64,000 nucleotides of DNA from NCBI GenBank assembly GCA_014860565.1, contig JACZJN010000162.1, forward strand, positions 14,739 through 78,738, read 5' to 3'. Position 1 is the first letter of the stretch, and each line of letters begins with the position of its first letter. Shown here one piece after another: positions 2,152-30,907 of the stretch. Made by a program: the position numbers and the translations under genes. Below the pieces are notes generated by a model. The model saw only the letters and a list, made by a program, of their open reading frames with translations. It had not been told where the DNA came from and ran no database searches. Source of the stretch: Bacteroidota bacterium (GTDB lineage Bacteria; Bacteroidota; Ignavibacteria; SZUA-365).

Positions 2152-2308
2152 TTCCTTGATTCCTCTGTGAGACAGAAATTGGCTCGTCGTTGAGTATGAG
2201 CTGTCACATGATTGGACGCGCTCGATACAACTATGATGGATATGCGGCTAGTATAGCGGAATCTTCACAGAGACGCAACCCTTTGGGTAAAATGGAAGCA
2301 GAATCCGA

Positions 2309-2743
2309 TTAATCGTTCGGGTGGGGATCCGTTGCGGGGGAATGCAGGAAATCTGAATTGAACGGTTCAGGAAGAAGATTGGTGAGTGTGAGCATGCGAT
2401 GCTCGTTGCCGCTGCCTGCGAGAATCACCGGAAGTGCTGGCGCGAATTCGGAGAGGACCTGCCTGCAGGCACCGCAGGGAGGAACAGACACCCCGTCGGC
2501 CGCGACGGCGATGGCAAGAAAAGACTGCACGCCGGCGGTCACCGCCGTATAGACGGCCGTGCGTTCCGCGCAGCATGTGAGACCATAGGAACTGTTTTCA
2601 ACATTGCAGCCGGTGAAGATCTCTCCGTCATCTGACAGGAGGGCTGCACCGACACGGAAGCCGGAATACGGGGCGTAGGCAGACTCTCGGGCTTCACGCG
2701 CAGTGGCGACTAGCTGTTCGATGATTTCTTCGTGAAGGGGCAT
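2309..2743 (-). CDS. cdd: Cytidine deaminase.
   Basis: 144 aa. Zinc-binding motifs CAER(TAV) and PCGACRQ are present, spaced as in Cdd. An RBS GAGGAG precedes the ATG. Confidence 0.9.
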   Translation of the reverse strand: MPLHEEIIEQLVATAREARESAYAPYSGFRVGAALLSDDGEIFTGCNVENSSYGLTCCAERTAVYTAVTAGVQSFLAIAVAADGVSVPPCGACRQVLSEFAPALPVILAGSGNEHRMLTLTNLLPEPFNSDFLHSPATDPHPND

Positions 2744-2754
2744 GGTTTCTCCTC

Positions 2755-2790
2755 GGTAAAAAAGAAAAGGTCTGAAAAATCAGACCTTTG
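2755..2790 (-). terminator. Rho-independent terminator directly 3' of tRNA-Ala on the minus strand.
   Basis: On the minus strand a 9-bp stem (AAAGGUCUG/CAGACCUUU) with a 6-nt loop is followed by UUUUCUUUUUUU. Confidence 0.6.
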
Positions 2791-2863
<73 letters not shown>

Positions 2864-2907
2864 GAAGGGTTTACAAATGTAAGGGGAAAACGAGATAAAT
2901 GCAACCA

Positions 2908-3546
2908 TCAAAGCATCGGTGTGAAGTAGTCCGTTTTCTCATGCGTGTGAATTGCGATGGCTCCGGCACGGATCAACCGCACAAGAAGCCGTGATGCGCG
3001 CCGGTCGGAAACGTTGATCAATTTGGCGTACTCCTTTACCGTGATGCGGTCGTTTTTCTCAAACCAGGCGAACAGTCGTTTCTCTGCTTCACCGAACACC
3101 AACCGTACCGGTTCGGAAGCGCCGAATTGATGACGCATCACGCGGATCATCTCCCGACTGGCCTGCACGCTGTGTTCGCCGACACGGACATAAGACCTCT
3201 TGTCATCTGTTTCTTCGCGCAGATAATGCGGCTTTCGCTCGCTCTCGGGAATTTCGATGCAGATGACATCGCGGTTGTTCACATTGAAAATGGTGACCGT
3301 GTGCGCGATGGGGGGATCGCAAAGATACTCGGCAGCATACGAGATATCGCCCAGCTCCGCTTTCTCACTGACGACGCCAACAATGGTTTTGTCATCGTCA
3401 ACGCCGAAAATGATGACTCCTCCGCGCGTGTTCGCGAAAGCGATCATTTCCTTCGCGATTTTTTCTCCCGTGGACACGCGCCGTTTGAACTCGGTCGTCA
3501 GACCTTCGCCCTCATCGATTTTATCCATCAGTTGGTGATAGCGCAT
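2908..3546 (-). CDS. Putative transcriptional regulator with an AlbA_2 / Schlafen-like divergent-ATPase N-terminal domain and a C-terminal HTH.
   Basis: Translation from ATG 3546 reads MRYHQLMDKIDEGEGLTTEFKRRVS...GGVIIFGVDD, matching the AlbA_2 pattern (ExxxxEFK...GG.IIxGV.D). The C-terminal segment ITVKEYAKLINVSDRRASRLLVRLIRAGAI resembles a helix-turn-helix. In-frame ATGs further upstream at 3615 and 3660 lack Shine-Dalgarno sequences. Confidence 0.55.
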   Translation of the reverse strand: MRYHQLMDKIDEGEGLTTEFKRRVSTGEKIAKEMIAFANTRGGVIIFGVDDDKTIVGVVSEKAELGDISYAAEYLCDPPIAHTVTIFNVNNRDVICIEIPESERKPHYLREETDDKRSYVRVGEHSVQASREMIRVMRHQFGASEPVRLVFGEAEKRLFAWFEKNDRITVKEYAKLINVSDRRASRLLVRLIRAGAIAIHTHEKTDYFTPML

Positions 3547-3710
3547 GGGTATCGTTTCTTCGTGTATTCTGGAAGTATGAAAAAAAACTTCATGCCGGGC
3601 AATGCCGTTCTTCATCCGGGTCGCAAGGATATGAAGCCGTGGTTTCGTATCATTCCGCATGTCCTCTCAGCCAGATTCGATTGCACCGTTGTTTTGAAAG
3701 GTCCCGACGC

Positions 3711-4679
3711 ATGCCTTTGCTCTGTAATTACTATCTGACCTATCGCTGCAATGCGTACTGTGCATTCTGCCATTTCGGAGATCACGGTGCGTTTCGCGAT
3801 GCGAGGCATGCCCGCACCGAGGATGTGCTCAGGAACATTGCGGACCTGCGTACTCTGGGTGTGCGCTTCGTCGATCTGACCGGAGGGGAACCGCTGCTTC
3901 ATCCGGATATCGCCCGCATCGCTGCGGAAACACGGCGGCTTGGCATGAAGGCGAGCATCACAACCAATGCGCTGCTGTACCCGAAACATGCAGAGGCTCT
4001 GGCAGGGAATGTTGATCTGCTGCACTTTTCTCTCGACAGCGCGGATCCATTGCAGCATAACGCAATGCGTGGCGTGGATTGCTTCGATCACGTGCTCGAA
4101 AGCATTGTCATCGCAAAGGACCTCGGCGAGCGGCCTGATCTGCTCTTTACTGTCACGAATGAGAACGTCGATCAGATGGAGGGGGTGTACGAAATTGCGC
4201 GGCGGTACGGACTGATGTTGCTGTTGAATCCCGTCTTTCGATATTTTCGCGAGGAAGGGCTCAGCGATGAGGCCATAGCACAGACCGAGCGATTCTCCCG
4301 CAAACCCATGGTCTACCTCAATCCATCATTTCTCACACTGCGACGTAAAGGAGGGAACAGCATCGACGATCCCCTCTGCAAGGCAGTTTCCCGCGTGGTC
4401 GTGATTTCACCGGATAACGAAATTCTCCTGCCGTGCTACCACCTGCACTATGAAAAACTGCCCATCGGAGAAAGCCTGAAGCATGCATGGCAATCGGAGC
4501 GTGTCCGCTGGCATCAGAAGCACGAGGGGAGGCACGAATTCTGTGAGGGATGCACCATCAACTGTTATTTCGAACCGTCATTCGCATATCCGACGAATCT
4601 CCTTTCGCTGGCGTCAGTGCCGTCCAAGATCAAATACGGGTATTCGAAATACCTCGTGCAATCTCTCCGGAAACGGTAA
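3711..4679 (+). CDS. Radical SAM enzyme with a C-terminal Cys-rich auxiliary-cluster-like region (SPASM/twitch-like).
   Basis: MPLLCNYYLTYRCNAYCAFCHF contains the CX3CX2C radical-SAM motif. A GGEPLL glycine-rich SAM-binding motif follows. The C-terminus has Cys residues spaced ...PCYHLH...(30)...FCEGCTINCYF. The gene is divergent from the AlbA_2 regulator gene. Confidence 0.8.
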   Translation: MPLLCNYYLTYRCNAYCAFCHFGDHGAFRDARHARTEDVLRNIADLRTLGVRFVDLTGGEPLLHPDIARIAAETRRLGMKASITTNALLYPKHAEALAGNVDLLHFSLDSADPLQHNAMRGVDCFDHVLESIVIAKDLGERPDLLFTVTNENVDQMEGVYEIARRYGLMLLLNPVFRYFREEGLSDEAIAQTERFSRKPMVYLNPSFLTLRRKGGNSIDDPLCKAVSRVVVISPDNEILLPCYHLHYEKLPIGESLKHAWQSERVRWHQKHEGRHEFCEGCTINCYFEPSFAYPTNLLSLASVPSKIKYGYSKYLVQSLRKR

Positions 4680-4712
4680 CTCTCGATGAGATGCGGCTGC
4701 CCGTGCCATGAA

Positions 4713-4778
4713 TGCAGCGGGAACAATCACGCCGCCGCATCGGTCAGCAGCGGGAACAATCACGCCGCCGCGTCCGTC
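4713..4778. repeat. Two tandem 33-bp direct repeats: a perfect 25-bp core GCAGCGGGAACAATCACGCCGCCGC plus an 8-bp tail (ATCGGTCA / GTCCGTCA).
   Basis: Read directly from the sequence: copies at 4713-4745 and 4746-4778, 31/33 identical. They sit in the intergenic region between the radical SAM gene and moxR. Confidence 0.9.
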
Positions 4779-8905: not shown

Positions 8906-9958
8906 ATGATTAAATTCGCACATCCGGAATATTTCATCTACATGTTGATCCTGCCTGCCATTGCAGCGGCATTGTGGTTCACCTGGTATCTGAAAAATCG
9001 CAGCATTCGCAGCTATGGCGATCAGCGCAGCGTGCTTTCACTCGTGGACAGGCGCAGCCGTGTTAAGTTTTGGCTTCGCGGAGGGATCGTGCTCCTTGCC
9101 TTTGCCGCGCTCGTCACCGCATATGCCAATCCGCTGATCGGAACCAAGTTCGAGGAAGTCACTCGCAGCGGTATCGATCTCATTGTGGCTATCGACGTCT
9201 CTGCCAGTATGCGTGCAGAAGATATTCAACCGAACCGCATCAGCGCTGCCCGCAAGGAGCTTCAGAATCTGATCAACAACCTCAAGGGTGATCGCATCGG
9301 CATTATCGTTTTTTCGGGTGATGCCTATACGCAACTGCCCCTGACGTCTGATTACAGCGCGGCACTGATGCTGACCGACGTCATAGATGCGGGCATGGCC
9401 CCGACGCCCGGTACCGCAATCGGGTCCGCCATCGAATTGGCACGAGAATCCTTTCGCAAGGAGGAAGGGAAGTACAAGGCGATGGTCATCATCACCGATG
9501 GTGAAAATCATGAGGACGACCCCGTCGCAGCTGCGGCGGAGGCTGCCAATGAGGGCATCGTCATTCATACGATCGGGATGGGATCGCTCGAAGGTGCGCC
9601 GATTCCGCTTTCCGCAAGAGGGGGAGAGCAGGGGTATAAAAAGGATAATGACGGTTCGATGCTGCTTTCCCGTCTTGATGCAGAAACGTTGAAGAAAGTC
9701 GCTGCCACCACCGGAGGCACATTCACCCAGGCGCTCAGTGGGAGAGACAACCTCGCAACCGTCTTCGATCAGATCGAGCGCATGGAAAAAAAGGAATTTG
9801 GCACGAAGCAATTCACCGATTATGAAGACCGCTTTCAGTATCTGGTTCTTTTGGGTCTGATTCTCCTGATATCCGAACTTTTCCTATCGGAAACACGCAA
9901 TCGCTTCCTGGCGCGTTTTTCGATCTTTTCGCCCAACGACGAACGGAGGAGATCCTGA
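8906..9958 (+). CDS. batB: BatB-type von Willebrand factor A domain membrane protein.
   Basis: N-terminal TMs. VWA motifs DLIVAIDVSASM and VIITDGENH are present, with a C-terminal TM (YLVLLGLILLISELFL). Confidence 0.85.
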   Translation: MIKFAHPEYFIYMLILPAIAAALWFTWYLKNRSIRSYGDQRSVLSLVDRRSRVKFWLRGGIVLLAFAALVTAYANPLIGTKFEEVTRSGIDLIVAIDVSASMRAEDIQPNRISAARKELQNLINNLKGDRIGIIVFSGDAYTQLPLTSDYSAALMLTDVIDAGMAPTPGTAIGSAIELARESFRKEEGKYKAMVIITDGENHEDDPVAAAAEAANEGIVIHTIGMGSLEGAPIPLSARGGEQGYKKDNDGSMLLSRLDAETLKKVAATTGGTFTQALSGRDNLATVFDQIERMEKKEFGTKQFTDYEDRFQYLVLLGLILLISELFLSETRNRFLARFSIFSPNDERRRS

Positions 9959-9959
9959 C

Positions 9960-10811
9960 ATGAAGCTGCGCAAGATGGTAATCACCGTTGCGTTATCCAT
10001 TCTCGCCGCTGGCGCGCATGCACAGTCGTATCGCAGTACCGTCAACGACGGGAACGATTTGTACCACAATAAGCAGTACGATCGAGCGCGAGAGAAATAC
10101 GAACAGGCAGCCATCGAGGAGCCGGAGCGTCCTGAAAGCTTTTTCAATGCCGGCAATGCCGCGTATCGCAATAACGATATCAAGGCCGCGCTGGATAAAT
10201 ATGAGAAGGCGGGGCTCCGCGTCAAGGACAAACAGACACTTGCACGTACGTTATACAATGCCGGAAATACCTTTCTGAACGCCGCGGAAAAAGGCGAAGA
10301 GAATCCCGCCCTGAAACAGGCGGCCGGGGAAGAGGCGGGGAATCTGCAGATGGAGGGCTACAAACAGGCGATCGAGATGTACAAGAAAGCCCTGAAACTC
10401 GATCCCAACGATCAGGATGCGAGGTATAATCTGACCTACGCTCGGAAGAAACTCGAGGATCTGCAGAAGCAGCAGCAAAACCAGAACAAGGATCAGAACA
10501 AGGATAAGAAGGATCAGAAGCAGGATAAACAGAAGGATCAGAAGAATCAGGACAAGAACAAGCAGGAAGAGCAGCAGAAGAAGGACAAGCAGGATCAGGA
10601 AAAGCAAAAGCAACAGAACCAGAAGGACAACGAACAAAAGGATAAGGCAAAGCAGGATCAGCAGCAGCAGCCCCAGCCGCAGAAGGAACAAAACATGTCG
10701 AAGCAGCAGGCCGAACAAATCCTGCGTGCACTTCAGAGAGATGAAAAAGAATTGCAGAAGAAGAAAAGGCAGCAGCAGGGACGCCGTATCAATGTCGAAA
10801 AAGACTGGTGA
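9960..10811 (+). CDS. batC: BatC-type TPR-repeat protein with a K/D/Q-rich low-complexity C-terminal region.
   Basis: Signal peptide, then TPR-like repeats (YNAGNAAYRNNDIKAALDKYEKA; YNAGNTFLNAA). The gene sits between the batB- and batD-type genes. Confidence 0.75.
   Translation: MKLRKMVITVALSILAAGAHAQSYRSTVNDGNDLYHNKQYDRAREKYEQAAIEEPERPESFFNAGNAAYRNNDIKAALDKYEKAGLRVKDKQTLARTLYNAGNTFLNAAEKGEENPALKQAAGEEAGNLQMEGYKQAIEMYKKALKLDPNDQDARYNLTYARKKLEDLQKQQQNQNKDQNKDKKDQKQDKQKDQKNQDKNKQEEQQKKDKQDQEKQKQQNQKDNEQKDKAKQDQQQQPQPQKEQNMSKQQAEQILRALQRDEKELQKKKRQQQGRRINVEKDW
10468..10700. repeat. Low-complexity purine-rich coding repeat (imperfect AAGGATCAGAA-like units) encoding the KDQ-rich tail of BatC.
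   Basis: Direct reading shows repeated cagaacaaggatcagaacaaggataagaaggatcagaagcaggataaacagaaggatcagaag... Confidence 0.8.
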
Positions 10812-10817
10812 CACAAC

Positions 10818-12659
10818 ATGATCCGGCGCACACTTCTATCGATTGTTATCGTCGCATTGTCGCTGCAGGTCCTGCACGCGCAGGAAACTCAGTTTTTCTG
10901 TAGTGTTGACCGCACCGAGGTGCCCGTCGGTCAGCAGTTTCAGGTAACCTATACGCTTTCTGGCGGGAGTTTGAGGCAATACAGCAATTTTCGGGCTCCC
11001 GATCTCAACCGGAATTTCATGACGCTCGCCGGCCCGTCGTCCTCACAGCAGATGCAGATTATCAACGGACGGGTTTCCGCGAGTATCTCATGGATTTACG
11101 TACTTCAGCCCCGCAATACGGGAACCTTCACCGTCCCTGCCGCGACGATCACCTACGACGGAAAATCCATGACGTCCAATACGGTGAGTATCAAGGTGAC
11201 ACGCGCGGTCCCGAATGCAGGGGGCGCGAATCAGCAGAAGCAGCAGGACAATACACCAGATGTGGATCTTGGCGATAACCTCTTTATTCGCGCGATTCCG
11301 AATCGGACGTCTGTCTATCTGGGTGAACCACTCACCGTCACCTATAAGCTTTATTCAAGGGTCGCATTTCAGCTCGATAATCCGATTAAACTTCCACGCA
11401 TGGTGGGATTCTGGTCGGAAGACATAGAAGCTCCCACGCAGTTGCAGCCTCGTGTCGAAGTCTATAACGGCCGTCAATATGAAACGTACATGCTTCGGAA
11501 AGTCCTCTATTTCCCCACGCAGTCAGGAAAGCTTACGATCGAGCCCTTTGAAATCGGCACAACGGTACGGGTACGGAAGCAGCGAAAAACAGGAAACGAT
11601 GCATTTGATCGCTTCTTCAGCGATCCACTGTTTGACAGCTATGATCATGTGAAAAAAAATCTCCTCACCCAGAAGGTGAACGTCACCGTGCGACCGCTTC
11701 CTGAAGACGGTCAGCCAAAGGGATTCTCCGGGGTAGTCGGTTCGTATGAGATGCGAGCGACGCTGGATCGCAACGCGATGAAAGCCAATGAAACCGCCAC
11801 TCTCAAAGTTGTCTTAACGGGGAAGGGCAATATTCGCCTTCTGGATGAACCGGTGATCACATTCCCGTCGGGCGTCGACCATTACGATCCGACCATCGAT
11901 GAGGACGCCAAGCCCCTTGACGGAACGCTTTCCGGCAGCAAGACATTCGAATACCTCCTTGTCCCTCGATACGCGGGGAAGGTCACCATACCGCCGGTTG
12001 TTTTCTCGTTTTTCGATCTCGACCTGAAGAAATATGTGACGCTTGAATCCCAGGCCTTTACTCTCGATATCGCCGAGGGAGACGTGCGTAAGAACGCAGG
12101 CGATCTCACTCAGAAATATGTCGATTACCTGTCCATGGATGTACGGGGAATACGTGAAGGCACCCCTCGTTTCGATAAAAACGTCTCGCACGGCATTCGG
12201 CCATTAATCATGTTGCTCTGCTATCTCATACCGGTAGTGCTGTTATTTGCCGCGCTCATGTGGAAGCAGCGATTCGACCGTTTGCATACCGATGTCGCCG
12301 GCATGAAGCGGCGGAAGGCGACGCGTGTTGCCGAACGTCGTTTGAGCGAATCGAAGAAGCATCTCGAGGCGGGGAACATCGATGCCTATTACCTGGAAAT
12401 CGCACGCGCGCTCTGGGGATATGTGCAGGACAAGCTTGATATTCCGACGTCCGAGACCGCAATCGATACCGTAATAGTACGTCTTCGAAATAGGAATGTG
12501 GATGAACTCGTCGCGGACAGGATGCGCAACGCCCTCGAAGCGGTTGAGTATGCACGGTTTTCACCGTCGAGGGCCAGTACCGACGAAATGCGCGCGTTGT
12601 ATGACCAGGCAAAAGAAGCCATTATCCAAACGGAGCAGGCGATGAGGTCCGTCGTATGA
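10818..12659 (+). CDS. batD: BatD-type protein (large secreted protein with a C-terminal TM anchor).
   Basis: 613 aa with a signal peptide and a TM near the C-terminus (LIMLLCYLIPVVLLFAALMW). It occupies the batD position, and its ATGA stop/start overlaps batE. Confidence 0.8.
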   Translation: MIRRTLLSIVIVALSLQVLHAQETQFFCSVDRTEVPVGQQFQVTYTLSGGSLRQYSNFRAPDLNRNFMTLAGPSSSQQMQIINGRVSASISWIYVLQPRNTGTFTVPAATITYDGKSMTSNTVSIKVTRAVPNAGGANQQKQQDNTPDVDLGDNLFIRAIPNRTSVYLGEPLTVTYKLYSRVAFQLDNPIKLPRMVGFWSEDIEAPTQLQPRVEVYNGRQYETYMLRKVLYFPTQSGKLTIEPFEIGTTVRVRKQRKTGNDAFDRFFSDPLFDSYDHVKKNLLTQKVNVTVRPLPEDGQPKGFSGVVGSYEMRATLDRNAMKANETATLKVVLTGKGNIRLLDEPVITFPSGVDHYDPTIDEDAKPLDGTLSGSKTFEYLLVPRYAGKVTIPPVVFSFFDLDLKKYVTLESQAFTLDIAEGDVRKNAGDLTQKYVDYLSMDVRGIREGTPRFDKNVSHGIRPLIMLLCYLIPVVLLFAALMWKQRFDRLHTDVAGMKRRKATRVAERRLSESKKHLEAGNIDAYYLEIARALWGYVQDKLDIPTSETAIDTVIVRLRNRNVDELVADRMRNALEAVEYARFSPSRASTDEMRALYDQAKEAIIQTEQAMRSVV

Positions 12660-13420
12660 AGATCATGATTCGCGTGTTGCTTCTGCTGATTGCCGCCACG
12701 GCACTCTCCTATGCGCAGTCTGCGACGCCACTGGAACGATACCGGGAGGCCGTCGCACACTATAAGAAAGCCGAATACCGTGAAGCCGTTCAAATTTTCA
12801 AGGAATTGATCGACGAGGGATACGTCAATTACGATCTTTACTACAACCTCGGAAACGCGGCCTATAAAAACGGTGATCTGGGTACCAGTGTTTTATCTTA
12901 TGAACGCGCGTTGACTCTCGACCCGGGGAATGAAAATGTAACGCATAATCTCAATGTCGTGCGTGCACGCCTGCGCGACCGAGTCGAGCCAATGCCCCTG
13001 CTCTTTTTCGTGAAGTGGTGGAATGACATCAAGGACTCCCATTCTCCCAACATCTTCTTTTCCTGGTCGCTCGTCTTTTTATTCCTCCTCGCCGCAGCCG
13101 TTTTTGTGTTCTTCGGCTATCGACAGCTCATACTCCGTCGGATAGCACTGATTGCCGGGATTCTATTCTTCACCGTGTTTGCTTCGGCGCTGACGCTCAC
13201 GATTACCAGAACCGAAGAACTCGATGCCCATCGATCTGCGGTGATCATGACGACGGAAGTGACAGTGCGGAGCACCCCGGATGCCACTGGGGTCGAAAGT
13301 TTCATCGTTCATGAAGGATTGAAAGTCGTCATTCTGGAATCGAAAAACGAGTTCTATAGGATACGGCTGGCGGACGGGAAGAGCGGTTGGGTGGAGAGGA
13401 CGGCGCTTGCCCGAATCTGA
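12656..13420 (+). CDS. batE: BatE-type TPR / TM / SH3b-like protein.
   Basis: Signal peptide, then TPR repeats (YNLGNAAYKNGDLGTSVLSYERALTLDP), two TM helices, and a C-terminal SH3-like segment (YRIRLADGKSGWVERTAL). Confidence 0.75.
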   Translation: MKIMIRVLLLLIAATALSYAQSATPLERYREAVAHYKKAEYREAVQIFKELIDEGYVNYDLYYNLGNAAYKNGDLGTSVLSYERALTLDPGNENVTHNLNVVRARLRDRVEPMPLLFFVKWWNDIKDSHSPNIFFSWSLVFLFLLAAAVFVFFGYRQLILRRIALIAGILFFTVFASALTLTITRTEELDAHRSAVIMTTEVTVRSTPDATGVESFIVHEGLKVVILESKNEFYRIRLADGKSGWVERTALARI

Positions 13421-24356: not shown

Positions 24357-25541
24357 TCAGCAGAGCTGAAGCGCCGCATCCAGGTCAGCAATAATTTCAT
24401 CGACATCCTCAATCCCGACAGAAAGCCGCACCAGCCCATCGGTAATCGCTGCCTGCTCACGCTGCTCCTTTCCCATGCTCGCATGCGTCATGGAAGCCGG
24501 ATGCTGGATCAGGCTTTCGACCCCGCCCAGACTTACTGCCAACTGGCATAGATGCATGTTGTTCATGAGCGTTATTCCCGATTCGAGTCCACCCGCCAAT
24601 TCGAACGCGATCATTGCTCCGTGTCCGCTCATCTGTTTGAGACCGATTTCATACTGCGGATGGCTGGGGAGACCGGGATAGCGCACCCATTCCACCTTCG
24701 GATGCTGCTCGAGGAAACGTGCCACATGCATGGCGCTTTCGCTCGCACGCTGCACACGCAAGGCGAGCGTCTTCAGTCCACGGTGCACGAGGAAGGAATT
24801 GAACGGATCGATGACACCGCCGATCTGATTGAGTGTCTTCCGGAATTGGGGGTACATCTCTTCGTCCTTGACGACGACGACACCACCGACGACGTCGGCA
24901 TGTCCATTGAGAGATTTCGTCAAACTGTGGACAATCACATCAGTTCCGTGCTCAAACGGGCGCTGCATCGCCGGTCCCATAAATGTGTTATCCACCACGA
25001 GCAGAGCGCCATTCGCATGTGCAATCTTGGAGATGGCGTCCAGGTCACTGATAACAAGCGTCGGATTGCCTGGTGTTTCCACGTAAATCACTTTTGTGTT
25101 CGGGGTAACTGCCTTCTTGACCGCCTCGAGGTTAGAGGTATCGACAAAGGTTGAATCCACGCCGAAACCCTGCATGACGGTTTTCAGAAGGGTCGAGGTT
25201 GGACCGTAAACAGATTCACTGCAGACTACATGATCCCCGCATTTGAGAATGGCTGCAAAGGCAGTATGAACGGCAGCCATACCGCTACCGCATCCGAGTG
25301 CACGCGCTCCGCCTTCAAGGATTGCAATCGCGTCTTCCATTGCTTCGACAGTTGGATTACGCATTCGTGTGTAGATGTACCCTTCTTCGACACCCGAGAA
25401 GAGATTCGCACCATGCTGGACATCCCTGAATTTGAAAGTGGATGTCTGATAAATCGGTGTGACCACGGCGCCATGCTCGTTTTCTTTCGTGCCGGCATGG
25501 ACAGCCTGTGTTTCAAATTTCTTGTTCCGGATTTCTTTCAC
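24357..25541 (-). CDS. PLP-dependent Cys/Met-metabolism enzyme, most like methionine γ-lyase.
   Basis: The N-terminus FETQAVHAG matches the family. The PLP-lysine region reads DVIVHSLTKSLNGHADVVGGVVVV, and the C-terminus has VRLSVGIEDVDEIIADLDAAL. Confidence 0.8.
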   Translation of the reverse strand: MKEIRNKKFETQAVHAGTKENEHGAVVTPIYQTSTFKFRDVQHGANLFSGVEEGYIYTRMRNPTVEAMEDAIAILEGGARALGCGSGMAAVHTAFAAILKCGDHVVCSESVYGPTSTLLKTVMQGFGVDSTFVDTSNLEAVKKAVTPNTKVIYVETPGNPTLVISDLDAISKIAHANGALLVVDNTFMGPAMQRPFEHGTDVIVHSLTKSLNGHADVVGGVVVVKDEEMYPQFRKTLNQIGGVIDPFNSFLVHRGLKTLALRVQRASESAMHVARFLEQHPKVEWVRYPGLPSHPQYEIGLKQMSGHGAMIAFELAGGLESGITLMNNMHLCQLAVSLGGVESLIQHPASMTHASMGKEQREQAAITDGLVRLSVGIEDVDEIIADLDAALQLC

Positions 25542-25548
25542 TTGGTTC

Positions 25549-25578
25549 CTCCAGAAATAATGCGTCTGCGTCAGACGC
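25549..25578 (-). terminator. Candidate terminator or attenuator hairpin downstream of the β-barrel operon and just upstream of the mgl-like RBS.
   Basis: Minus strand GCGUCUG-ACG-CAGACGC followed by AUUAUUUCU and then GGAGG-ATG of the next gene. Confidence 0.4.
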
Positions 25579-25643
25579 TGAATGTGATTTGTTATGCGGG
25601 TGATGATACGGTCTGAACCCTGCGCGTTGCTGATGCATAGGGG

Positions 25644-27755
25644 TCAATCAAAAAATACCCAGTCTACGCCAAGCCTGAAAGCCCGGTCGAACATGGGATA
25701 AAACTCCGTTGTTATGTATTGATCGTCAAAAACATTGTACAGGACGAGATGAAGTGTCGCACGCTCTTTGATGGTCGCGAAAAGGAAAATATCGATCCGT
25801 TTCATGTCCGTATAAGTGCGTGGAGCCTGATCATTGGAAATGGTCCTTAGAAAGAGCCCCGTTTCGGGGTGATACAGAAGCGGTGTAAACTGATCCGCGT
25901 ATGCGAAACGGGCACCTGCGCGAAGATCCAGTGTCCCTTCGATGAGCACACCCCTGAAATAAAGCTCGGCGGAGTAGGAAAACGGTGGTGCAAGCAGTTC
26001 CGTGACGTTGCCGTCTGATGTCACGACAGAACCTTGCTGGTCGAGATGGAAGCGCCAGACAGTAAGACGCGCGTCCGCGCTCCCGCCGTACAGACCGCGC
26101 TGAAGCCCCCCCGGAAGCTCTGTCACTTCCAGACGGTAACGGCCAAGATATGAATCTGTAAATGCTGCGGCACGAATGTCGAGATAGCGTGTCTGGTGAC
26201 GGGCAAAGCCACGTAAATCAAGCGTGAGCCAATCGGTGTTTAGACGTATACCAGCTTCGCCGATGACAGATTTATCCAGGTTCGGTGTGCGGTCTCCATC
26301 GACCGAAACGCGCTGGCCCACATACAGACGCTCTACAAGAGAACGGGGGCGTGCAGAGAACGACGCACCGCCCCAGAGACTGACCTGCCCAATCGGCAGC
26401 TCGGCCCCGGCGCCAAAGGCAATGGTGCTGCTTCCGAATTGCTGGTCCAGTCTTCCGTATCCGGAAAGAGAGACCGGACCAAATAGAAGGCTGAGTTTCC
26501 CGCGGGCATGCGCCAGGATATCCGCATCATCAAGCGTTTCACCACCCATTTCTGCTCCGTAGCGCCCGACCATTCCCTGGAGTTCCATACGCGCCCAGGA
26601 CAAACTCGTCTGATGATCCAGCACGGCCTTGAACAGGGACCAGTGATCCGTCAGATTCAATATCCCGTCAGCATTCGTGTATTCAGGATACAATGCAAGA
26701 ATATTATCCCGAAAGCGCCGGACGTCGGAATCGAAACCAATGCGCAGCTGCGTCACTTGCGCCGAGTCCTCGCTCCACTGAACGCGGGCGCCGGCTTCAG
26801 CCAGATAATGCTGTCCTTCGGTCAGCATGGTCGTGTTCACAAGTTCAGCGCTTACCGGATCAAATGCGGTCGCGGCGAAAACTCCTTCAGCTTCATTCTC
26901 GAAAAAATAGGACTGGGGAGCCGTCGAAAGAAATGTGCCGCGTATTCCACCGTTCAGCAATGTGAGATGCTCGTCGTATTGGAGACGCGTCAACAGTGAA
27001 ACAGCATCGCCAAGCTTCTTGCGATAGCGCAGTCGCACATTCCAGCTTTCATAACGGTTGTTTGCATACCGTGCAGAGTTATTGCTGCTCGAGGAACCGA
27101 TGCTCGATCTTGTAAGTCCGAAATAGATGTTGTCTTTCTCACCCGTATTGAGCGTGAACATCGCATCCGTGTAGAGGTATTCATTGGCCGCTTCGGTATG
27201 ACGCATGCGCGTGATGGGGCGGGGGGCATCCCAATATTTCTCCTCTACGCTCATCACCATGACATCACCGGGCCCCCCATACCAGAACGCCTGGTATTGG
27301 GGATAGATCGTGAATGTGCTTGCATCCTCGGTTGAGTAGCGATAGAGGTCTGGCAGCGTATTCAGAAGATTATCGGCGCTAAGCCCGTTAATGGTCACGG
27401 ATGACTGGAGCGGGGTGGATCCGCCCATTCCCAGCCAGGCGGGTTGTCCGTAATTTCCCAGGGAGAACAACGTGGCTGCCGGGTGGTTTTGTGCGATTTC
27501 ACCGATGTGGTGGTAATCGATCAGCGCAATCGAATCTTTGTCCCATAACCACACAGCCGATGAGGTGTTTGTTTGGCTGCGCAGGGGAAGAAGGCGGTCA
27601 GAGACGCCGTCGAGACTGTCGTCCGGCGCTGTCGGGAGAGCCCTGCGAAGTGCTGCCGACGAGGAACCCGACACGGTCGCACTGCTGTCAATGCCTGTCA
27701 CCTGTGCCCTCACCAGCGCACTGCAAAAGAAGAGGAGAAGCAGCGTCGATCTCAT
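25644..27755 (-). CDS. Large (about 700 aa) outer-membrane β-barrel protein (TonB-dependent-receptor-like or large porin-like).
   Basis: ATG at 27755 with signal peptide MRSTLLLLFFCSALVRAQ. The protein is rich in alternating aromatic-Gly β-strand patterns throughout. The C-terminus reads FRLGVDWVFFD. Its start overlaps the FemAB-like gene's stop by 4 nt. Confidence 0.5.
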   Translation of the reverse strand: MRSTLLLLFFCSALVRAQVTGIDSSATVSGSSSAALRRALPTAPDDSLDGVSDRLLPLRSQTNTSSAVWLWDKDSIALIDYHHIGEIAQNHPAATLFSLGNYGQPAWLGMGGSTPLQSSVTINGLSADNLLNTLPDLYRYSTEDASTFTIYPQYQAFWYGGPGDVMVMSVEEKYWDAPRPITRMRHTEAANEYLYTDAMFTLNTGEKDNIYFGLTRSSIGSSSSNNSARYANNRYESWNVRLRYRKKLGDAVSLLTRLQYDEHLTLLNGGIRGTFLSTAPQSYFFENEAEGVFAATAFDPVSAELVNTTMLTEGQHYLAEAGARVQWSEDSAQVTQLRIGFDSDVRRFRDNILALYPEYTNADGILNLTDHWSLFKAVLDHQTSLSWARMELQGMVGRYGAEMGGETLDDADILAHARGKLSLLFGPVSLSGYGRLDQQFGSSTIAFGAGAELPIGQVSLWGGASFSARPRSLVERLYVGQRVSVDGDRTPNLDKSVIGEAGIRLNTDWLTLDLRGFARHQTRYLDIRAAAFTDSYLGRYRLEVTELPGGLQRGLYGGSADARLTVWRFHLDQQGSVVTSDGNVTELLAPPFSYSAELYFRGVLIEGTLDLRAGARFAYADQFTPLLYHPETGLFLRTISNDQAPRTYTDMKRIDIFLFATIKERATLHLVLYNVFDDQYITTEFYPMFDRAFRLGVDWVFFD

Positions 27756-28735
27756 CGGAATCCTCTCTTGAATCGCAGCCGCTTGATGCGCGCGGCATTC
27801 AGATGTCGCACAAAGGCGGGACGGTACCATTCCGCCTCATGATACTCGAAGATATCACCTCCGAAACTGCGTTTGAAATCCGTGACCCCGGGAGTATTCG
27901 CGCCCATGAAATCGAACAGCGTACAACCCGACTCGCTATAATGTTGCAGGAGGGCGTGTACCAGCCAATGCGAGGAGGAAGGGGAGACGGAAGGATCGGC
28001 GCCAGCCATCCAATCGTAGAGAACGCTTCGACTTCTGATAACGACGCGTACAGCAGCATACCGGCCGTCTGCGAGCCGGGCGGCGAAGCATTGCGCAATT
28101 CCTGCCTGGCGCAATGAACTTAGCCACCGACCCATGGTTGCACCGGGAATGGGCGGAAGCTTGCCATGCCTTCGATAGCTTTGTTCGAACATGCGAACGA
28201 CAAGACTGACCGGAGGATCGTTGTCAAGCAGGAAGCCTCCCTCTGATGCGCGCCGCAACTTCCGGCGCAGCGACTGGTTGTATCCATTCCAGACATTCTC
28301 CATATCAAGGAGCGAAATTCTGATCGTTTCCTGCTTACGTAGTTGCCATCCTCGAGATCGCATCAATAACGCGTCTTCAAGTCTCGTCACCGTACTCAAC
28401 GCGATGAAGTTGAATTTCCGCTCCACCGCATCGAACAGCATTTCAAGAGAAGGAATCCGAGAATCACCATGCAGCAACCCCGCGTATAGCGTGATGGGAA
28501 GAGGGGAGGAAACGCGAAGCGGGCCGCGACGGTGCAGCAGGAGAGGAATCCCGGCGACAGGTGCACCGTCACAGGTCAGCACAAATCCGAGAGGGGGGCG
28601 CTCGAACGCCCGCCCCATAAGCGTCAACCACTTGGTGCTGCTGAAGATGGAGGCATCGGCGGATGTGTCGTGGAGACTGTCCCAGAGCCCGGGCTGTTCA
28701 TCCAACGAAACGGTATGCACGGAGCAGTTCTGCAT
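27752..28735 (-). CDS. FemAB-like / BioF2-like GNAT acyltransferase (Acetyltransf_6 family).
   Basis: The C-terminal block CTLFDFMGANTPGVTDFKRSFGG is typical of FemAB-related acyl/aminoacyl transferases. Confidence 0.6.
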   Translation of the reverse strand: MQNCSVHTVSLDEQPGLWDSLHDTSADASIFSSTKWLTLMGRAFERPPLGFVLTCDGAPVAGIPLLLHRRGPLRVSSPLPITLYAGLLHGDSRIPSLEMLFDAVERKFNFIALSTVTRLEDALLMRSRGWQLRKQETIRISLLDMENVWNGYNQSLRRKLRRASEGGFLLDNDPPVSLVVRMFEQSYRRHGKLPPIPGATMGRWLSSLRQAGIAQCFAARLADGRYAAVRVVIRSRSVLYDWMAGADPSVSPSSSHWLVHALLQHYSESGCTLFDFMGANTPGVTDFKRSFGGDIFEYHEAEWYRPAFVRHLNAARIKRLRFKRGFR

Positions 28736-28745
28736 GTTCGCAGGC

Positions 28746-29657
28746 TCAGAGGGTGAGATTCACTGTATGCTGTGCGATCAGATACGAAATCAGAAAAAGA
28801 TATTTGACGGCAATGCCCATCTGTATCCCCACGTTCGTTGCCTCCGCGCTGTCGAGGGAAACTCCGTTATTGAGTTCGCCGATCTGGTCGCCGGCCTTGG
28901 GATCGATCGACAAAAGCCATAACTGCGAAACCTCGAATGTGCGAAACATACCATTGATAAAAAGATCTTCCTGCTTTTTAGCAACGCGCACACCTTGTCG
29001 ATATTGTCGGTCAATCTGTTCGAACGCCTTTTCATATCGCTTCTCGGTGTCGATATCCCTGATGATCATGGAGGAGAGGGCATAGCAGGCCTCCGCGATG
29101 GCAGCAGCTGCTTCCACTGCGGGCGCATCGGGCCGCAAGGCCTCTATTGTTTCATCGTGTATCTGTTGAATTTCTTTCTGCTTGTCTGCCTGGCCCACGA
29201 ATTTCATCTTCGCGAGCAACGCATACATGCTGTATGTGCCTGACATCCCGTTCATGATTTTGCCCGCTTCCTCCTTACGCTGATCGTCGCCAGTTCTGAG
29301 GCGGTGGAGCTCCGTGTCGATTTCGGATGCGAACAGTCCATCCCTGTCGAGGGCGTATGCTGTCACGCCGAGGATCTGGGTAAGGCTGTATAATTCCGTG
29401 ATCAGAGTCTGAATATCGGTTGAACGATTTCCCTCGAGGTTCGATTTCCTGATTGCCTCAATATCTCCCACGAGTTTCTTCTTCTTTTCCGGATTTCCCC
29501 GGAATCCTTGAGATTCCGGTAACGAAGGAGGCTGCGACTCGAGAAAGGGAGTTTGTGCCGGAGTTTCAGGCGCGGGGCCCGGCTCCTTTTTTCGATCCGT
29601 ACTACAAGCAGTCATTCCAAAAAACAGGAAGAAGAGAAGAAAAGCGCGGAGAGACAT
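28746..29657 (-). CDS. Hypothetical lipoprotein, α-helical.
   Basis: Lipobox FFGMTACS, then a Pro/Glu-rich linker and predicted helical repeats. Its ATGA start overlaps the upstream lipoprotein gene's stop. Confidence 0.5.
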   Translation of the reverse strand: MSLRAFLLFFLFFGMTACSTDRKKEPGPAPETPAQTPFLESQPPSLPESQGFRGNPEKKKKLVGDIEAIRKSNLEGNRSTDIQTLITELYSLTQILGVTAYALDRDGLFASEIDTELHRLRTGDDQRKEEAGKIMNGMSGTYSMYALLAKMKFVGQADKQKEIQQIHDETIEALRPDAPAVEAAAAIAEACYALSSMIIRDIDTEKRYEKAFEQIDRQYRQGVRVAKKQEDLFINGMFRTFEVSQLWLLSIDPKAGDQIGELNNGVSLDSAEATNVGIQMGIAVKYLFLISYLIAQHTVNLTL

Positions 29658-30673
29658 CAGGGCAGTACCTCATTGGTGGTAAGTATCGATTTACGGATTG
29701 CCAGGAATGTGTCGGAAAAATTCTCGTAGCTCACATGAGATGCATCGACCGCGGAATAGAAAAGCAGATAGCGATTGTGCGCCGCATCCGCAATCCATTG
29801 CAGCTCGCCTCGGACAGCAAGGCCATTGTCATTTGTCACACGCTCGGTACGAAGTAATCGCAGCGGAGTGCTCGCGAGGGAATCTGGATTCCCCTTCAAT
29901 GAATCCGGAAGAGGCATGGGGAGCGCGGCCACGCGCACAAATGCTACAGGCGTAAGACTGGTCGGATCGATGTATTGAAGAGCGACGCCAGGCAGCGATG
30001 ATGATTGTGTCGGCACCGTCGTACGATGGAGACTGACGACATCCCAAGCCAAGGGGTATTTCATGAACAGAGAGAGCGTATCCGAAGCGATGCGGGAGAG
30101 GCCTTCTTCGCTCATTCGCATGGCGAACTGCTTCTCTTTCTGCCACCAGCTCGATTCGTAGTTCCCGGATTCCGCAAAGGGAATTACCCACGCGCCTCGT
30201 TCTCTTCGTAAAATGAAAGTCCCCACGCTCTCGAACGTGCTCTGATGGAGATGAACAAGGAATGTCGCAGTCACGAGCACTCGCATGGTATCCTGAAGCT
30301 CGATGTCCAGGACGTCAAATCGAGTGAATGTATAGGAGAATGGCGTCTTTCCAGCATCGGCCTGTTGGTCGAACCACACGCCGAACGAACCGCCGTCAGT
30401 GACGCCGGACGCTCGCAGGGCGCGGCGGCTCGCAGCACTGAGCAGATTGTAGGCACCCGAAGCATCATGCTCCGGTGCGAATGCTTCCACCCAGCGAAGA
30501 AATGTGTCTCGTGCTTCCCTGAAAAGGAGCATATCCGGTGGAAGTGTATTCGGTTCGCCGGTCTCTTCCTTAGGGATCGCGTGCTGCTCATTGCCACAGG
30601 ATGATAAAGAAAGCAGGGCAATGAGGAGGGTGATCCCAAGCTGTGCGTATTGGTGTCGAGTGAAACTCATCAT
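29657..30673 (-). CDS. Hypothetical lipoprotein.
   Basis: Lipobox LLSLSSCGN. 338 aa. It is the first gene of the four-gene minus-strand operon. Confidence 0.5.
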   Translation of the reverse strand: MMSFTRHQYAQLGITLLIALLSLSSCGNEQHAIPKEETGEPNTLPPDMLLFREARDTFLRWVEAFAPEHDASGAYNLLSAASRRALRASGVTDGGSFGVWFDQQADAGKTPFSYTFTRFDVLDIELQDTMRVLVTATFLVHLHQSTFESVGTFILRRERGAWVIPFAESGNYESSWWQKEKQFAMRMSEEGLSRIASDTLSLFMKYPLAWDVVSLHRTTVPTQSSSLPGVALQYIDPTSLTPVAFVRVAALPMPLPDSLKGNPDSLASTPLRLLRTERVTNDNGLAVRGELQWIADAAHNRYLLFYSAVDASHVSYENFSDTFLAIRKSILTTNEVLP

Positions 30674-30907
30674 AGTCTTAAAAGATACGGAATTCCCTCG
30701 GGTCAGGAAACAGAAAGAGGTGCACCCTTGATGGAAAGGCAGCCTCGTTTGGAAGCAATACTTGAGGAACTGGTACTAACACGCAAAGAATCAACCATTT
30801 CGAACGGCAATACCGGCATGTCGCAGCTTGACTTTATTTTGCTTCCTGCCTAACTTGTGGTTTGTGTTTCATTTTACAATCACTCTAGACGTTACACAGC
30901 ATACCAT

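Follow-up and report, generated by a model that had tools for sequence, protein, structure and literature searches.

A Conserved Operon Joining a Fem-Type Transferase, a Plug-and-Barrel Outer-Membrane Protein, and Two Novel Lipoproteins in Uncultured Bacteroidota-Related Bacteria

Nearly all that is known of the TonB-dependent-receptor superfamily concerns gated import, and in the phylum Bacteroidota TonB-dependent transporters normally come paired with lipoproteins. We know of no member of this superfamily that anchors or exports peptidoglycan or glycan, of no plug-barrel that exports lipid, and of no described transporter operon with a coupled Fem-type transferase. Likewise, to our knowledge, no Fem enzyme is coupled to an outer-membrane barrel and no known tether system includes one. 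The PF13480 or "BioF2-like" domain is fused to alpha-oxoamine synthases in some bacteria, and the N-terminal-amine type of peptidoglycan attachment is known from Brucella. Background papers on L,D-transpeptidase attachment of outer-membrane proteins to peptidoglycan include PMC12274547 and PMC12729407.

The window, that is, the whole 64-kb stretch of DNA analyzed here, carries four minus-strand open reading frames, read directly from its sequence, exactly where an earlier note on this DNA had placed them (Table 1). That note described the junctions as ATGA overlaps or a 10-nt gap, which holds for the GNAT and barrel genes (ATGA, a 4-nt overlap) and for LP2 and GNAT (10-nt gap), whereas LP1 and LP2 overlap by one nucleotide (TGATG). 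The longest reading frame of the barrel gene spans 25644-27830 (728 aa), and the conserved ATG at 27755 yields the 703-aa product, which begins MRSTLL. The four genes are real: each has 36-51 homologous clusters, and synteny of the unit extends over about 25 distinct loci, all in MAGs of uncultured Bacteroidota/Ignavibacteria-like organisms. The proposed translational coupling is conserved. Wherever both genes occur, the barrel gene starts at position -4 counted from the GNAT stop, with the exception of the L028 lineage (+4); in most loci LP1 and LP2 share 1 or 4 nt, and in the basal ones they are 1-12 nt apart. We read the unit as a cell-envelope operon passed on vertically in an uncultured lineage with ties to Bacteroidota and Ignavibacteria.

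Table 1. Features of the four-gene unit and its borders (positions in the window)
Feature	Position	Strand	Basis or remark
Promoter-like block, TTTC-N19-TATCTTTT	30680-30710	-	ends 6 nt ahead of LP1 ATG
LP1, 338-aa lipoprotein	29657-30673	-	ORF
LP2, 303-aa lipoprotein	28746-29657	-	ORF
GNAT, 327-aa Fem-type transferase	27752-28735	-	ORF and PF13480
Plug-and-barrel outer-membrane protein, 703 aa	25644-27755	-	PF14121 and BtuB1 profile match
Plug-like domain, barrel residues ~72-190	27186-27542	-	aligns with BtuB1/BtuB plug and L028 Plug
Hairpin GCGUCUG-ACG-CAGACGC	25562-25578	-	7-bp stem, 3-nt loop
Next gene, PLP-dependent Cys/Met-metabolism enzyme	24357-25541		

When 11 loci are aligned, the TTTC and TATCTT columns of the promoter-like block do not vary, and the block looks similar to the Bacteroidetes -33/-7 promoter type; its closeness to the LP1 start codon implies that the leader is very short or absent. 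At the other end, a hairpin was expected at about 25550-25580, closing the unit. It is present downstream of the barrel stop codon, ahead of a Shine-Dalgarno-like GGAGG that belongs to the next gene. Terminator-like sites in the region are no commoner than in shuffles (7 found versus 7.2 expected). However, hairpins are predicted at the equivalent position, ahead of the GGAGG of the next gene, in L008, L009, L015, and L010; L009 and L015 keep the GCGUC...GACGC core, and in L009 one base pair has changed from U-A to C-G on both sides. The hairpin may act as a weak terminator, or it may belong to the 5'-UTR of the PLP-enzyme gene.

The GNAT is a cytoplasmic protein lacking a signal peptide, in which the motifs QSLRRK(I/L)R and FDFMGANT...FK..FGG are invariant across the alignment. 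Its assignment to the Fem-like transferases is supported by PF13480 (7e-17) and by the L042 ortholog, which passes PF02388 (FemAB); among solved structures, profile comparison with the PDB places it closest to an aminoacyl-tRNA-dependent peptide synthase (9wqy/9wqw, E 1e-5). All 17 of 17 members also match TIGR03019, though far under its cut-off (33 bits for the window protein against 260). GNAT relatives that lack a linked barrel adjoin genes for GT9, GT2, Wzx flippases, DegT, hexapeptide acetyltransferase, DUF6798, and DUF7033, and these glycan and amino-sugar clusters indicate a biosynthetic role on envelope glycans. The modification of an envelope polymer suggested earlier fits this setting as a possible function.

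The conserved core of the operon is the GNAT-barrel pair, to which LP1 and LP2 are lineage-specific additions. The pair recurs, alone or beside unrelated genes, in a second deep lineage. It is kept in every related genome examined, including those with unrelated flanks (helicase, EngA, histidine kinase, and sdh in L028/L046-L048; Spt-like, ilvE, and rlpA in L042/L045), so these genomes do not show the unlinking that the earlier note named as a refutation. In six loci that branch basally in the GNAT tree (L001, L002, L023, L024, L025, and L058), the first gene of the operon encodes a YkuD L,D-transpeptidase with an intact active-site motif (H...SHGCIR) and an N-terminal transmembrane anchor, which among solved structures is closest to Ldtfm, an enzyme that cross-links peptidoglycan. 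The gene was apparently present in the ancestor and lost on the way to the crown group, which includes the window lineage, and it points to peptidoglycan peptides. The whole 64-kb window contains no YkuD gene, which makes the connection to peptidoglycan an indirect one here and counts against the reading that follows.

Tentatively, with a probability of about 0.35, we suggest that the Fem-type transferase modifies a cytoplasmic envelope precursor and that an outer-membrane complex of the plug-barrel and lipoproteins handles the same material. The GNAT would aminoacylate or acylate the precursor at a free amino group, most likely in the peptidoglycan stem peptide or, alternatively, on an amino sugar of a lipid-linked glycan, and an unlinked flippase would move the product outward. 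LP1 and LP2, ancestrally together with the L,D-transpeptidase, would engage it in the periplasm, and the two lipoproteins with the plug-barrel would form an outer-membrane complex that binds, anchors, or passes it. Substrate, transport direction, and complex formation are all inferred here. This reading is favored by the tight junctions, the unit in about 25 loci and the pair among unrelated flanks, by the Fem evidence (PF13480, PF02388, and the peptide synthase relative), by YkuD in first position in the basal loci, and by the glycan clusters of the barrel-less GNAT relatives. Against it counts that NJ trees give no support to one common origin for all GNATs linked to a barrel (5 of 100 bootstraps).

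The barrel was described earlier as an outer-membrane protein of about 700 aa; its size and location stand, but it is not an orphan porin or exporter, since it has a plug and falls in the TonB-dependent-receptor superfamily. Of the Pfam families proposed for it, PF14121 (Porin_10) matches at 3.5e-12, and neither PF00593 nor PF07715 does. It is a divergent member of the superfamily, in the Porin_10 subfamily. The barrel family profile finds Bacteroides BtuB1 in the PDB at 1e-7, spanning the plug and the C-terminal strand motif, and E. coli BtuB at 0.012. In the L028 ortholog, Pfam Plug matches residues 56-155, aligned to the plug-like domain of the window protein. The signal peptide (residues 1-18, cleaved between VRA and Q) is followed by a variable extension rich in Ser/Asp/Thr/Pro (residues ~19-68). 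Because the barrel signal peptides end in AQ, the mature N-terminus is probably a cyclised Gln (pyroglutamate), which would block peptidoglycan attachment through the N-terminal amine; this, and a superfamily known almost only for gated import, with no known anchor or exporter of peptidoglycan or glycan, count against the preferred reading.

A close rival, which we consider only slightly less likely, is TonB-dependent uptake of the Bacteroidota type, with the plug-barrel as an active transporter and LP1 and LP2 as ligand-capturing lipoproteins analogous to SusD/BtuG/HmuY-type partners. The GNAT would then process an imported compound in the cytoplasm or make a secreted one that is later re-imported. 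Possible cargoes are peptides or fragments of peptidoglycan, in which case the ancestral YkuD could have trimmed them in the periplasm. The plug homology to BtuB1/BtuB, the C-terminal NxxDxxY...P..(G/D)R motif, and the usual transporter-lipoprotein pairing of the phylum speak for uptake, as does Pfam Plug, found above the gathering score in 10 of 10 distant barrel relatives (PF00593 also in two of these); yet Plug is found in only 8 of 19 orthologs and is undetected in the window protein. Similarly, a semi-conserved D-S-(L/V/I/T) segment ~20-25 residues upstream of the first plug strand is TonB-box-like in some orthologs (DSTVVSA in L004, DSILTTA in L013, DTAIIQI in L024), but no conserved TonB box is evident across the family, whose N-terminal extension is variable and of low complexity. 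The standard TonB-dependent receptor that the earlier note named as a refutation agrees with the plug, but not with the lack of a recognisable TonB box and of a PF00593 match in the window protein. The four-gene unit contains no riboswitch, regulator gene, or inner-membrane importer gene, which favors the preferred reading over uptake, nor does it have a substrate-degrading enzyme. The GNAT relatives in biosynthetic glycan clusters also stand against uptake, as do the core-genome neighborhoods of the unit and of the wider barrel family. Distant Plug and Porin_10 barrels without the GNAT occur in housekeeping and LPS neighborhoods, not in nutrient-uptake loci (4 of 4 follow an ispE-like kinase, with kdsA, a kdsD-like gene, and lptC among the genes nearby), which again favors modification and handling of an envelope precursor.

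Both predicted lipoproteins have their lipoboxes, LSSC (Cys26) in LP1 and MTAC (Cys18) in LP2, and the Cys is invariant in alignments of 33 LP1 and 34 LP2 homologues; outside the latter, LP2 of L025 and L027 has a signal peptide without the Cys, and this loss of the lipid anchor argues for a periplasmic rather than surface location, contrary to uptake. The NCBI annotation of LP2 uses an internal start (206 aa) that removes the lipobox. LP1 consists of a disordered tether with the invariant motif IPKEETGEPNTLP, an NTF2-like domain (residues ~46-164), and a beta-rich second domain (~177-330) that is probably PsbP/Mog1-like. The NTF2-like fold is also fused to YkuD domains in Csd6, Pgp2, and Bd1075 and occurs at the N-terminus of PBP2a, but it is generic and lends the preferred reading weak support. 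LP2 continues from its Cys into a disordered linker (residues 19-55) that is low in complexity and differs in length between homologues, and then into five repeats in which a charged helix comes before a hydrophobic one. These five hairpins are predicted to close into a single-chain alpha-helical barrel; the sole strong structural match is a de novo design, and designed barrels of this kind have a central lumen. None of the four proteins contains the peptidoglycan-binding Pfam domains OmpA, LysM, or SPOR, which counts against the preferred reading.

It is improbable that the operon serves biogenesis and export of a lipid or glycoconjugate, with the GNAT N-acylating or aminoacylating an amino-lipid or lipid-linked glycan, the LP2 helical barrel and the LP1 NTF2-like cone ferrying hydrophobic cargo through the periplasm, and the plug-barrel working outward as the site of outer-membrane insertion or export. 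This is a more specific version of the modification-and-export system suggested in the earlier note. The hydrophobic inner helices of LP2 and its match to designed barrels agree with this, as do the kdsA, kdsD-like, and lptC neighbors of distant barrels and the tie of PF13480 to alpha-oxoamine synthases. In L042 and L045, a Spt-like alpha-oxoamine synthase (NF047600, 8e-149) is divergent from the GNAT-barrel pair and followed by an Acetyltransf_1 GNAT. However, these are two close loci of one lineage, and the adjacency is absent from the main clade and L028/L048; the unit has no flippase or Lpt-like gene, plug-barrels are not known to export lipid, and the ancestral YkuD is left without a role. 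Hits to known polysaccharide-export families (Wza/OPX, AlgE, PgaA, BcsC type) are absent, and given the importing habit of the barrel superfamily, the "export" proposed in the earlier note has no direct support. The outer-membrane components of bacterial sphingolipid transport are not yet known (bioRxiv 10.64898/2026.04.12.717747; PMC11087976), which leaves room for such a role.

One flank of the unit (efp-accBC-gcvH-guaA) and the other (PLP enzyme, MFS, S21, DUF4921, tsaD, yceG) are likewise syntenic throughout the main clade, so gene order there is partly inheritance, which counts against the preferred reading. Still, that the genes share no function and are neighbors through unchanged inheritance in a narrow lineage, with overlaps that merely reflect compact genomes, is highly improbable: the equally syntenic housekeeping flanks and the few protein clusters for GNAT, LP1, and LP2 (about 40-50) would agree, but the GNAT-barrel pair persists, overlapping by or separated by 4 nt, where all flanks differ (L028/L048, L042/L045), the pair is also kept at GNAT identities down to 24-28%, the unit is intact where left-side flanks change (L018, L019, L050), and YkuD was lost with the remaining gene order undisturbed.

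Compared with the BtuB type (E. coli BtuB; B. thetaiotaomicron BtuB1 with BtuG, PDB 8blw), the window protein has the same N-terminal plug followed by a barrel (~510 residues, large enough for 22 strands), shares the C-terminal strand motif N-x-x-D-x-x-Y...P-x-(G/D)-R, and, like BtuB1, is encoded with lipoprotein genes. Unlike BtuB, it lacks a PF00593/PF07715 match and a conserved TonB box, ends in Asp after the aromatic residue, has no cobalamin riboswitch in its operon, and is translationally coupled to a cytoplasmic Fem-type transferase. SusC/SusD complexes of the same phylum-level group also combine a plug-barrel with co-encoded lipoproteins, but neither Pfam family nor fold links LP1 and LP2 to SusD, SusE, or SusF, the barrel has no N-terminal extension domains of the SusC kind, and the locus has no glycoside hydrolases or regulators.

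The basal operons, with YkuD, barrel, and lipoproteins, recall L,D-transpeptidase tethering (E. coli Lpp with LdtA-C; Brucella/Coxiella barrels), and the flexible N-terminal extension of the barrel would face the periplasm, as the N-termini of TonB-dependent receptors do. In contrast to tethering systems, the window lacks YkuD, LP1 and LP2 lack a C-terminal Lys, and the probable pyroglutamate sets the mature barrel apart. With the FemABX/PF13480 group (CelD/BcsL; TIGR03019 PEP-CTERM FemAB; 9wqy) the GNAT shares double-GNAT size (~330 aa), FK..FGG near the C-terminus, and its place in the cytoplasm; CelD and PEP-CTERM FemAB lie in envelope glycan loci, as do the GNAT relatives, but the GNAT has no exosortase/PEP-CTERM or cellulose synthase context. 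For LP2, the de novo single-chain coiled-coil alpha-helical barrel sc-CC-5-24 (PDB 8qkd) is among the closest known systems. A Fem-type transferase, a plug-barrel, and two novel lipoproteins form a conserved, undescribed combination of known parts.

The genes of the two lipoproteins (LP1 and LP2), the Fem-type transferase (GNAT) and the outer-membrane plug-and-barrel protein (here, the barrel) form a conserved operon on the minus strand. At its centre stand the Fem-type transferase and the receptor-type plug-barrel, which are translationally coupled, and accessory proteins of the periplasm or outer membrane complete it. Their products are deposited as MBE0645078-81, from a MAG labelled "Bacteroidetes bacterium". 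The earlier note had proposed a four-gene operon joined by ATGA overlaps or a 10-nt gap. Its open reading frames and coordinates hold, and direct reading of the sequence gives ATGA at the GNAT/barrel junction and a 10-nt gap between LP2 and GNAT, as proposed; the LP1/LP2 junction is instead TGATG, a 1-nt overlap.

Coordinates of the unit and its flanking elements in the window
Feature	Position	Strand	Remarks
Promoter-like block TTTC-N19-TATCTTTT	30680-30710	minus	common to 11 loci; ends 6 nt before the LP1 ATG
LP1	29657-30673	minus	ORF of 338 aa
LP2	28746-29657	minus	ORF of 303 aa
GNAT	27752-28735	minus	ORF of 327 aa
Barrel, longest form of the ORF	25644-27830	minus	728 aa; 703 aa (MRSTLL...) from the conserved start, ATG at 27755
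Hairpin	25562-25578	minus	small; after the barrel stop codon and ahead of the GGAGG of the PLP-enzyme gene that follows

The in-frame ATG that opens the longest barrel frame, 79 nt upstream of the conserved start, was rejected as the true start, since the signal peptide is encoded from the -4 start onward. The latter lies 4 nt within the GNAT gene and yields the form of the protein present in public collections. The upstream ATG is found again in many loci, which is probably explained by its place in the conserved GNAT stretch EAEWYRP. In the public annotation of LP2 (MBE0645080.1, window 28746-29657) an internal start is used, and the 206 aa that it leaves lack signal peptide, lipobox and linker; it is the 303-aa form that is conserved.

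Among 5.8 billion proteins, homologous clusters number 51 for GNAT, 40 for LP1 and 36 for LP2, all from uncultured Bacteroidota or Ignavibacteria-type MAGs; the data include no cultured, studied representative of the unit's lineage. The order LP1-LP2-GNAT-barrel was recovered by locus retrieval in about 25 distinct loci. The barrel starts at -4, with ATG, GTG or TTG, in every locus except those of the L028 lineage (+4). In most loci, the LP1 and LP2 genes share 1 or 4 nt; in the basal loci, 1-12 nt lie between them. The gap between LP2 and GNAT is 7-19 nt long, with a 4-nt overlap in L002. In one main-clade locus, L050 (8001-8930), the GNAT region looks broken, a 146-aa ORF being left and the barrel ORF being extended upstream; this is either an assembly frameshift or a pseudogene.

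In the main clade, that is, the loci with the four-gene unit, synteny by itself proves little, since the whole neighbourhood is syntenic, with the divergent efp, accB, accC, gcvH, and guaA genes on one side and the genes for the PLP enzyme, MFS, S21, DUF4921, tsaD, and yceG on the other. In L028 and L046-L048, only GNAT and the barrel are present, among helicase, EngA, histidine kinase, and sdh genes. In L042 and L045, the two genes overlap by 4 nt and adjoin a divergent operon (2422-4752 and 1590-3928, respectively) encoding an Spt-like alpha-oxoamine synthase, an Acetyltransf_1 GNAT, ilvE, and rlpA. The L042 Fem-type GNAT is 28% identical to that of the window over its full length and shares its motifs. 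Since the pair persists in lineages with different flanks, GNAT and the barrel are the conserved core, to which LP1 and LP2 were added in the main clade. The same persistence, where all flanks differ, makes it improbable that the genes stay together by inherited synteny alone, with no joint function.

The transferase, called FemAB-like in the earlier note, matches PF13480 with 62.3 bits (E 7e-17; gathering cut-off 22 bits), and this family is annotated in 51 of 51 homologues. PF02388 (FemAB) is not matched by the window protein and reaches 33.5 bits in the L042 ortholog (cut-off 24). The best solved relative of the family profile is the aminoacyl-tRNA-dependent peptide synthase 9wqy/9wqw (E 1e-5). 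GNAT has no signal peptide and so should be cytoplasmic. Its sole NCBIfam match is TIGR03019 (PEP-CTERM FemAB), seen in all 17 members scanned (best E 4e-16). A PEP-CTERM/exosortase exopolysaccharide system was rejected, since the scores, 33.5 bits for the window GNAT and 55.9 for the L042 ortholog, are far below the equivalog cut-off of 260 and no exosortase occurs in any retrieved locus. A comparison with the plasmid collection gave only distant haloarchaeal and Azospirillum GNATs, and nothing useful was found in the literature on PF14121/Porin_10, PF13480, or the aminoacyl-tRNA-dependent peptide synthase.

Relatives of GNAT without a barrel are found in glycan contexts. In Rhodothermales, they follow hslU and precede DUF6798 and Wzx-type flippase genes; others stand after GT9 heptosyltransferase genes (in L029 also with a PMT_2 membrane transferase nearby) or after GT2, and one lies inside a cluster of DegT, hexapeptide acetyltransferase, DUF7033, and Wzx genes. 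The usual setting of the family is thus the biosynthesis of amino-sugar-containing envelope glycans. Among NCBIfam families, the Spt-like gene of L042 and L045 comes closest to the CFB-type serine palmitoyltransferase (8e-149, under its cut-off), and this row, present in one lineage only, may be a sphingolipid or amino-lipid operon. The gene is also the sole sign of a link to bacterial ceramide synthase (bCerS) and the sphingolipid pathway. The Spt-adjacent GNAT of L042, an Acetyltransf_1 protein, was rejected as a paralogue of the Fem-type transferase, to which hhalign detects no relation.

The sole Pfam match of the window barrel is PF14121 (Porin_10, "putative porin"), one of the families suggested for it beforehand, at 46.3 bits (E 3.5e-12; gathering cut-off 27 bits), and all 19 orthologs match it too. 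PF07715 (Plug) is not matched by the window protein at E<=1, and PF00593 (22-strand receptor barrel) is matched neither by this protein nor by the 19 orthologs, so that a standard TonB-dependent receptor, as recognized by direct Pfam match, was rejected. The plug is established by homology. Plug is matched in 8 of the 19 orthologs (best 3e-11), and in the distant L028 ortholog a clear Plug domain (3e-11) lies N-terminal to the Porin_10 match. Against the PDB, the 19-ortholog profile finds Bacteroides BtuB1 (E 1e-7), with alignment over the plug (positions 9-140) and over the strand at the C-terminus (N..D..Y...P..R), and more weakly E. coli BtuB (plug), another TonB-linked receptor, and TbpA. 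An exhaustive HMMER search returned 461 representative clusters, 215 of them at E<=1e-10; ten sampled full-length distant relatives (~25% identity) all score above gathering for Plug and pass Porin_10, and two also match PF00593. By this kinship, visible only via orthologs, the profile-to-PDB search and distant homologues, the barrel belongs to the TonB-dependent-receptor superfamily, though as a divergent member, and Porin_10 is a family of plug-barrels.

No TonB box is conserved or evident across the barrel family. The 50-90 residues after the signal peptide are of low complexity and variable, and the one element to recur there is a semi-conserved D-S-hydrophobic segment, placed 20-25 residues N-terminal to the plug. 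Some orthologs have a version that resembles a TonB box; that of the window protein is degenerate (DSLDGVS). Thus, of the standard TonB-dependent receptor that the earlier note had set against its own reading, the barrel has the plug, by homology, and shows no PF00593 match and no evident TonB box. Pfam and NCBIfam scans (E<=1) of the four unit proteins matched none of Wza/OPX, AlgE, PgaA, BcsC, and Wzi, and the only other barrel-type match among the 19 orthologs is a single weak one to OMP_b-brl (0.025). At the C-terminus (window 25644-25670), the aligned family ends in ...GVDW(V/I)F(F/L)D, with an Asp after the aromatic residue, whereas the usual outer-membrane β-signals have a terminal Phe or Trp. 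The signal peptides (window 27702-27755) mostly end in A-Q in the same alignment. By the Bacteroidetes 'Q-rule', the mature N-terminus is cyclised to pyroglutamate; the A-Q ends fit this rule, and pyroglutamate would block attachment to peptidoglycan through the N-terminal amine.

Distant barrels with Plug and Porin_10 and without GNAT follow an ispE-like GHMP kinase gene in four of four cases. Over the five contigs examined (L039, L040, L041, and two JGI contigs without DNA), the neighbours include kdsA in two, a LOG-family gene in three, and a SIS/CBS kdsD-like gene with lptC in one (L041). GNAT-less distant barrels also lie after rsmB or among T9SS cargo genes. All these settings are core genome, not nutrient-utilisation loci. 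The neighbourhoods on the five contigs hint that Porin_10 as a whole has a housekeeping role in the outer membrane.

The description of LP1 and LP2 as lipoproteins is borne out by their lipoboxes, LSS-C26 and MTA-C18, respectively, with the Cys invariant in both alignments (33 homologues of LP1 and 34 of LP2). LP2 of L025 and L027, which stand outside the alignment, has no lipid-anchor Cys, and this fits a periplasmic location better than a surface one. Neither lipoprotein has a sequence relative in Pfam, NCBIfam, or the PDB, and neither shows the fold or Pfam family of SusD (TPR-rich) or BtuG (β-propeller).

In L001, L002, L023, L024, L025, and L058, the operon is headed by a fifth gene, for an L,D-transpeptidase (YkuD), which overlaps or abuts LP1. 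The protein (311-323 aa) carries a membrane anchor at its N-terminus and keeps the active site H...SHGC(I/V)R intact, and its nearest solved relative is Ldtfm, a peptidoglycan cross-linking enzyme of E. faecium. In the neighbour-joining tree of GNAT, the main clade has weak support (58/100), and inside it these loci form a basal, paraphyletic set. This suggests an ancestral YkuD and a single loss, in the crown group that includes the window. By tblastn, no YkuD gene is found in the 64-kb window. A derivation of LP1 from the C-terminal part of YkuD, or a relation between them, was rejected, the hhalign probability being 0.1%.

The block 5' of LP1 resembles the Bacteroidetes -33/-7 promoter type. 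Its sequence and position suggest that transcription begins just 5' of LP1, from a Bacteroidetes-type promoter, to give a nearly leaderless mRNA. A sigma-70-type promoter scan gave fewer sites than in shuffles and was not informative. The hairpin said to close the unit is present at the place named, and terminator-like sites are not enriched in the operon region. A hairpin is predicted at the same position in four other loci (L008, L009, L015, and L010), with a paired U-A to C-G change in L009. The U-tail of the window hairpin is poor, so that this may not be a terminator but an element in the 5'-UTR of the PLP gene. Control by a cobalamin or other riboswitch, an idea taken from the similarity to BtuB, was rejected because the operon region has no Rfam match even at E<=1.

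Elsewhere in the 64 kb, the only Rfam gathering-level match is a single tRNA gene (2791-2863, minus strand). At 8906-13420 lies a candidate Bat-like (aerotolerance-type) row, identified by eye from translations and comprising a vWA protein, a TPR protein whose long tail is rich in Lys, Gln, and Asp, a BatD-like protein, and a second TPR protein. The low-complexity tail of the first TPR protein accounts for an AT-skew spike at 10-12 kb.

We tentatively propose, with a probability of about one in three, that the transferase on the one hand and the barrel and lipoproteins on the other work on the same modified envelope material. In the cytoplasm, the transferase would modify a stem peptide of peptidoglycan or, as the alternative, an amino sugar of a lipid-linked glycan; on the outer side, the modified material would be handled by the barrel and lipoproteins, and ancestrally by the L,D-transpeptidase as well. 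This is ranked first because peptidoglycan stem peptides are the common target of Fem and YkuD enzymes, because the relatives of GNAT are biosynthetic, because the unit and the wider barrel family lie in core-genome and LPS-related neighbourhoods, and because the unit has no regulator, riboswitch, or importer.

A close second, though itself doubtful, is uptake by a TonB-dependent system of the conventional kind, in which LP1 and LP2 would be novel capture lipoproteins. The protein family of the barrel provides overwhelming precedent for such a system, and peptidoglycan fragments are a plausible cargo. Rather unlikely, in third place, is the outward transport of a modified lipid or glycoconjugate, a sharpened form of the modification-and-export idea of the earlier note; the observations behind it are, in full, the Spt-like neighbour in one lineage, the hydrophobic barrel of LP2, and the lptC/kdsA contexts of the distant barrels. 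A more specific version, which we consider a long shot, has the transferase and the barrel forming an outward-acting pathway. The receptor-type barrel would have been re-used as the site where an aminoacylated or N-acylated envelope lipid or lipid-linked glycan is inserted into the outer membrane or exported, and LP2, a natural single-chain α-helical barrel in this version, would carry the hydrophobic cargo through the periplasm. In bacterial sphingolipid transport, the step at the outer membrane is still unknown (bioRxiv 10.64898/2026.04.12.717747; PMC11087976). If the barrel were so re-used, it would be a candidate for this missing step of bacterial amino-lipid or sphingolipid transport, and LP2, if a carrier, would give designed helical barrels their first counterpart in nature.

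Action on peptidoglycan peptides would make the unit a new means of connecting or servicing wall and outer membrane in diderm bacteria without Braun's lipoprotein, and action on lipids or glycans would place a plug-barrel at work in envelope biogenesis. The uncharacterised family Porin_10 gains a first functional handle, and is to be read as a receptor-like plug-barrel, not as a porin. All parts of the unit come from known superfamilies, and it is not categorically new. What is undescribed is the obligate coupling of GNAT and plug-barrel, the L,D-transpeptidase associated with it, and two lipoprotein families that carry no annotation; for one of these, the predicted fold is otherwise known from designed proteins alone. 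The GNAT-barrel pairing is kept in two deep lineages, with overlapping start and stop codons, and we know of no described system in which a cytoplasmic Fem-type transferase is obligately paired with an outer-membrane protein of the TonB-dependent-receptor type.
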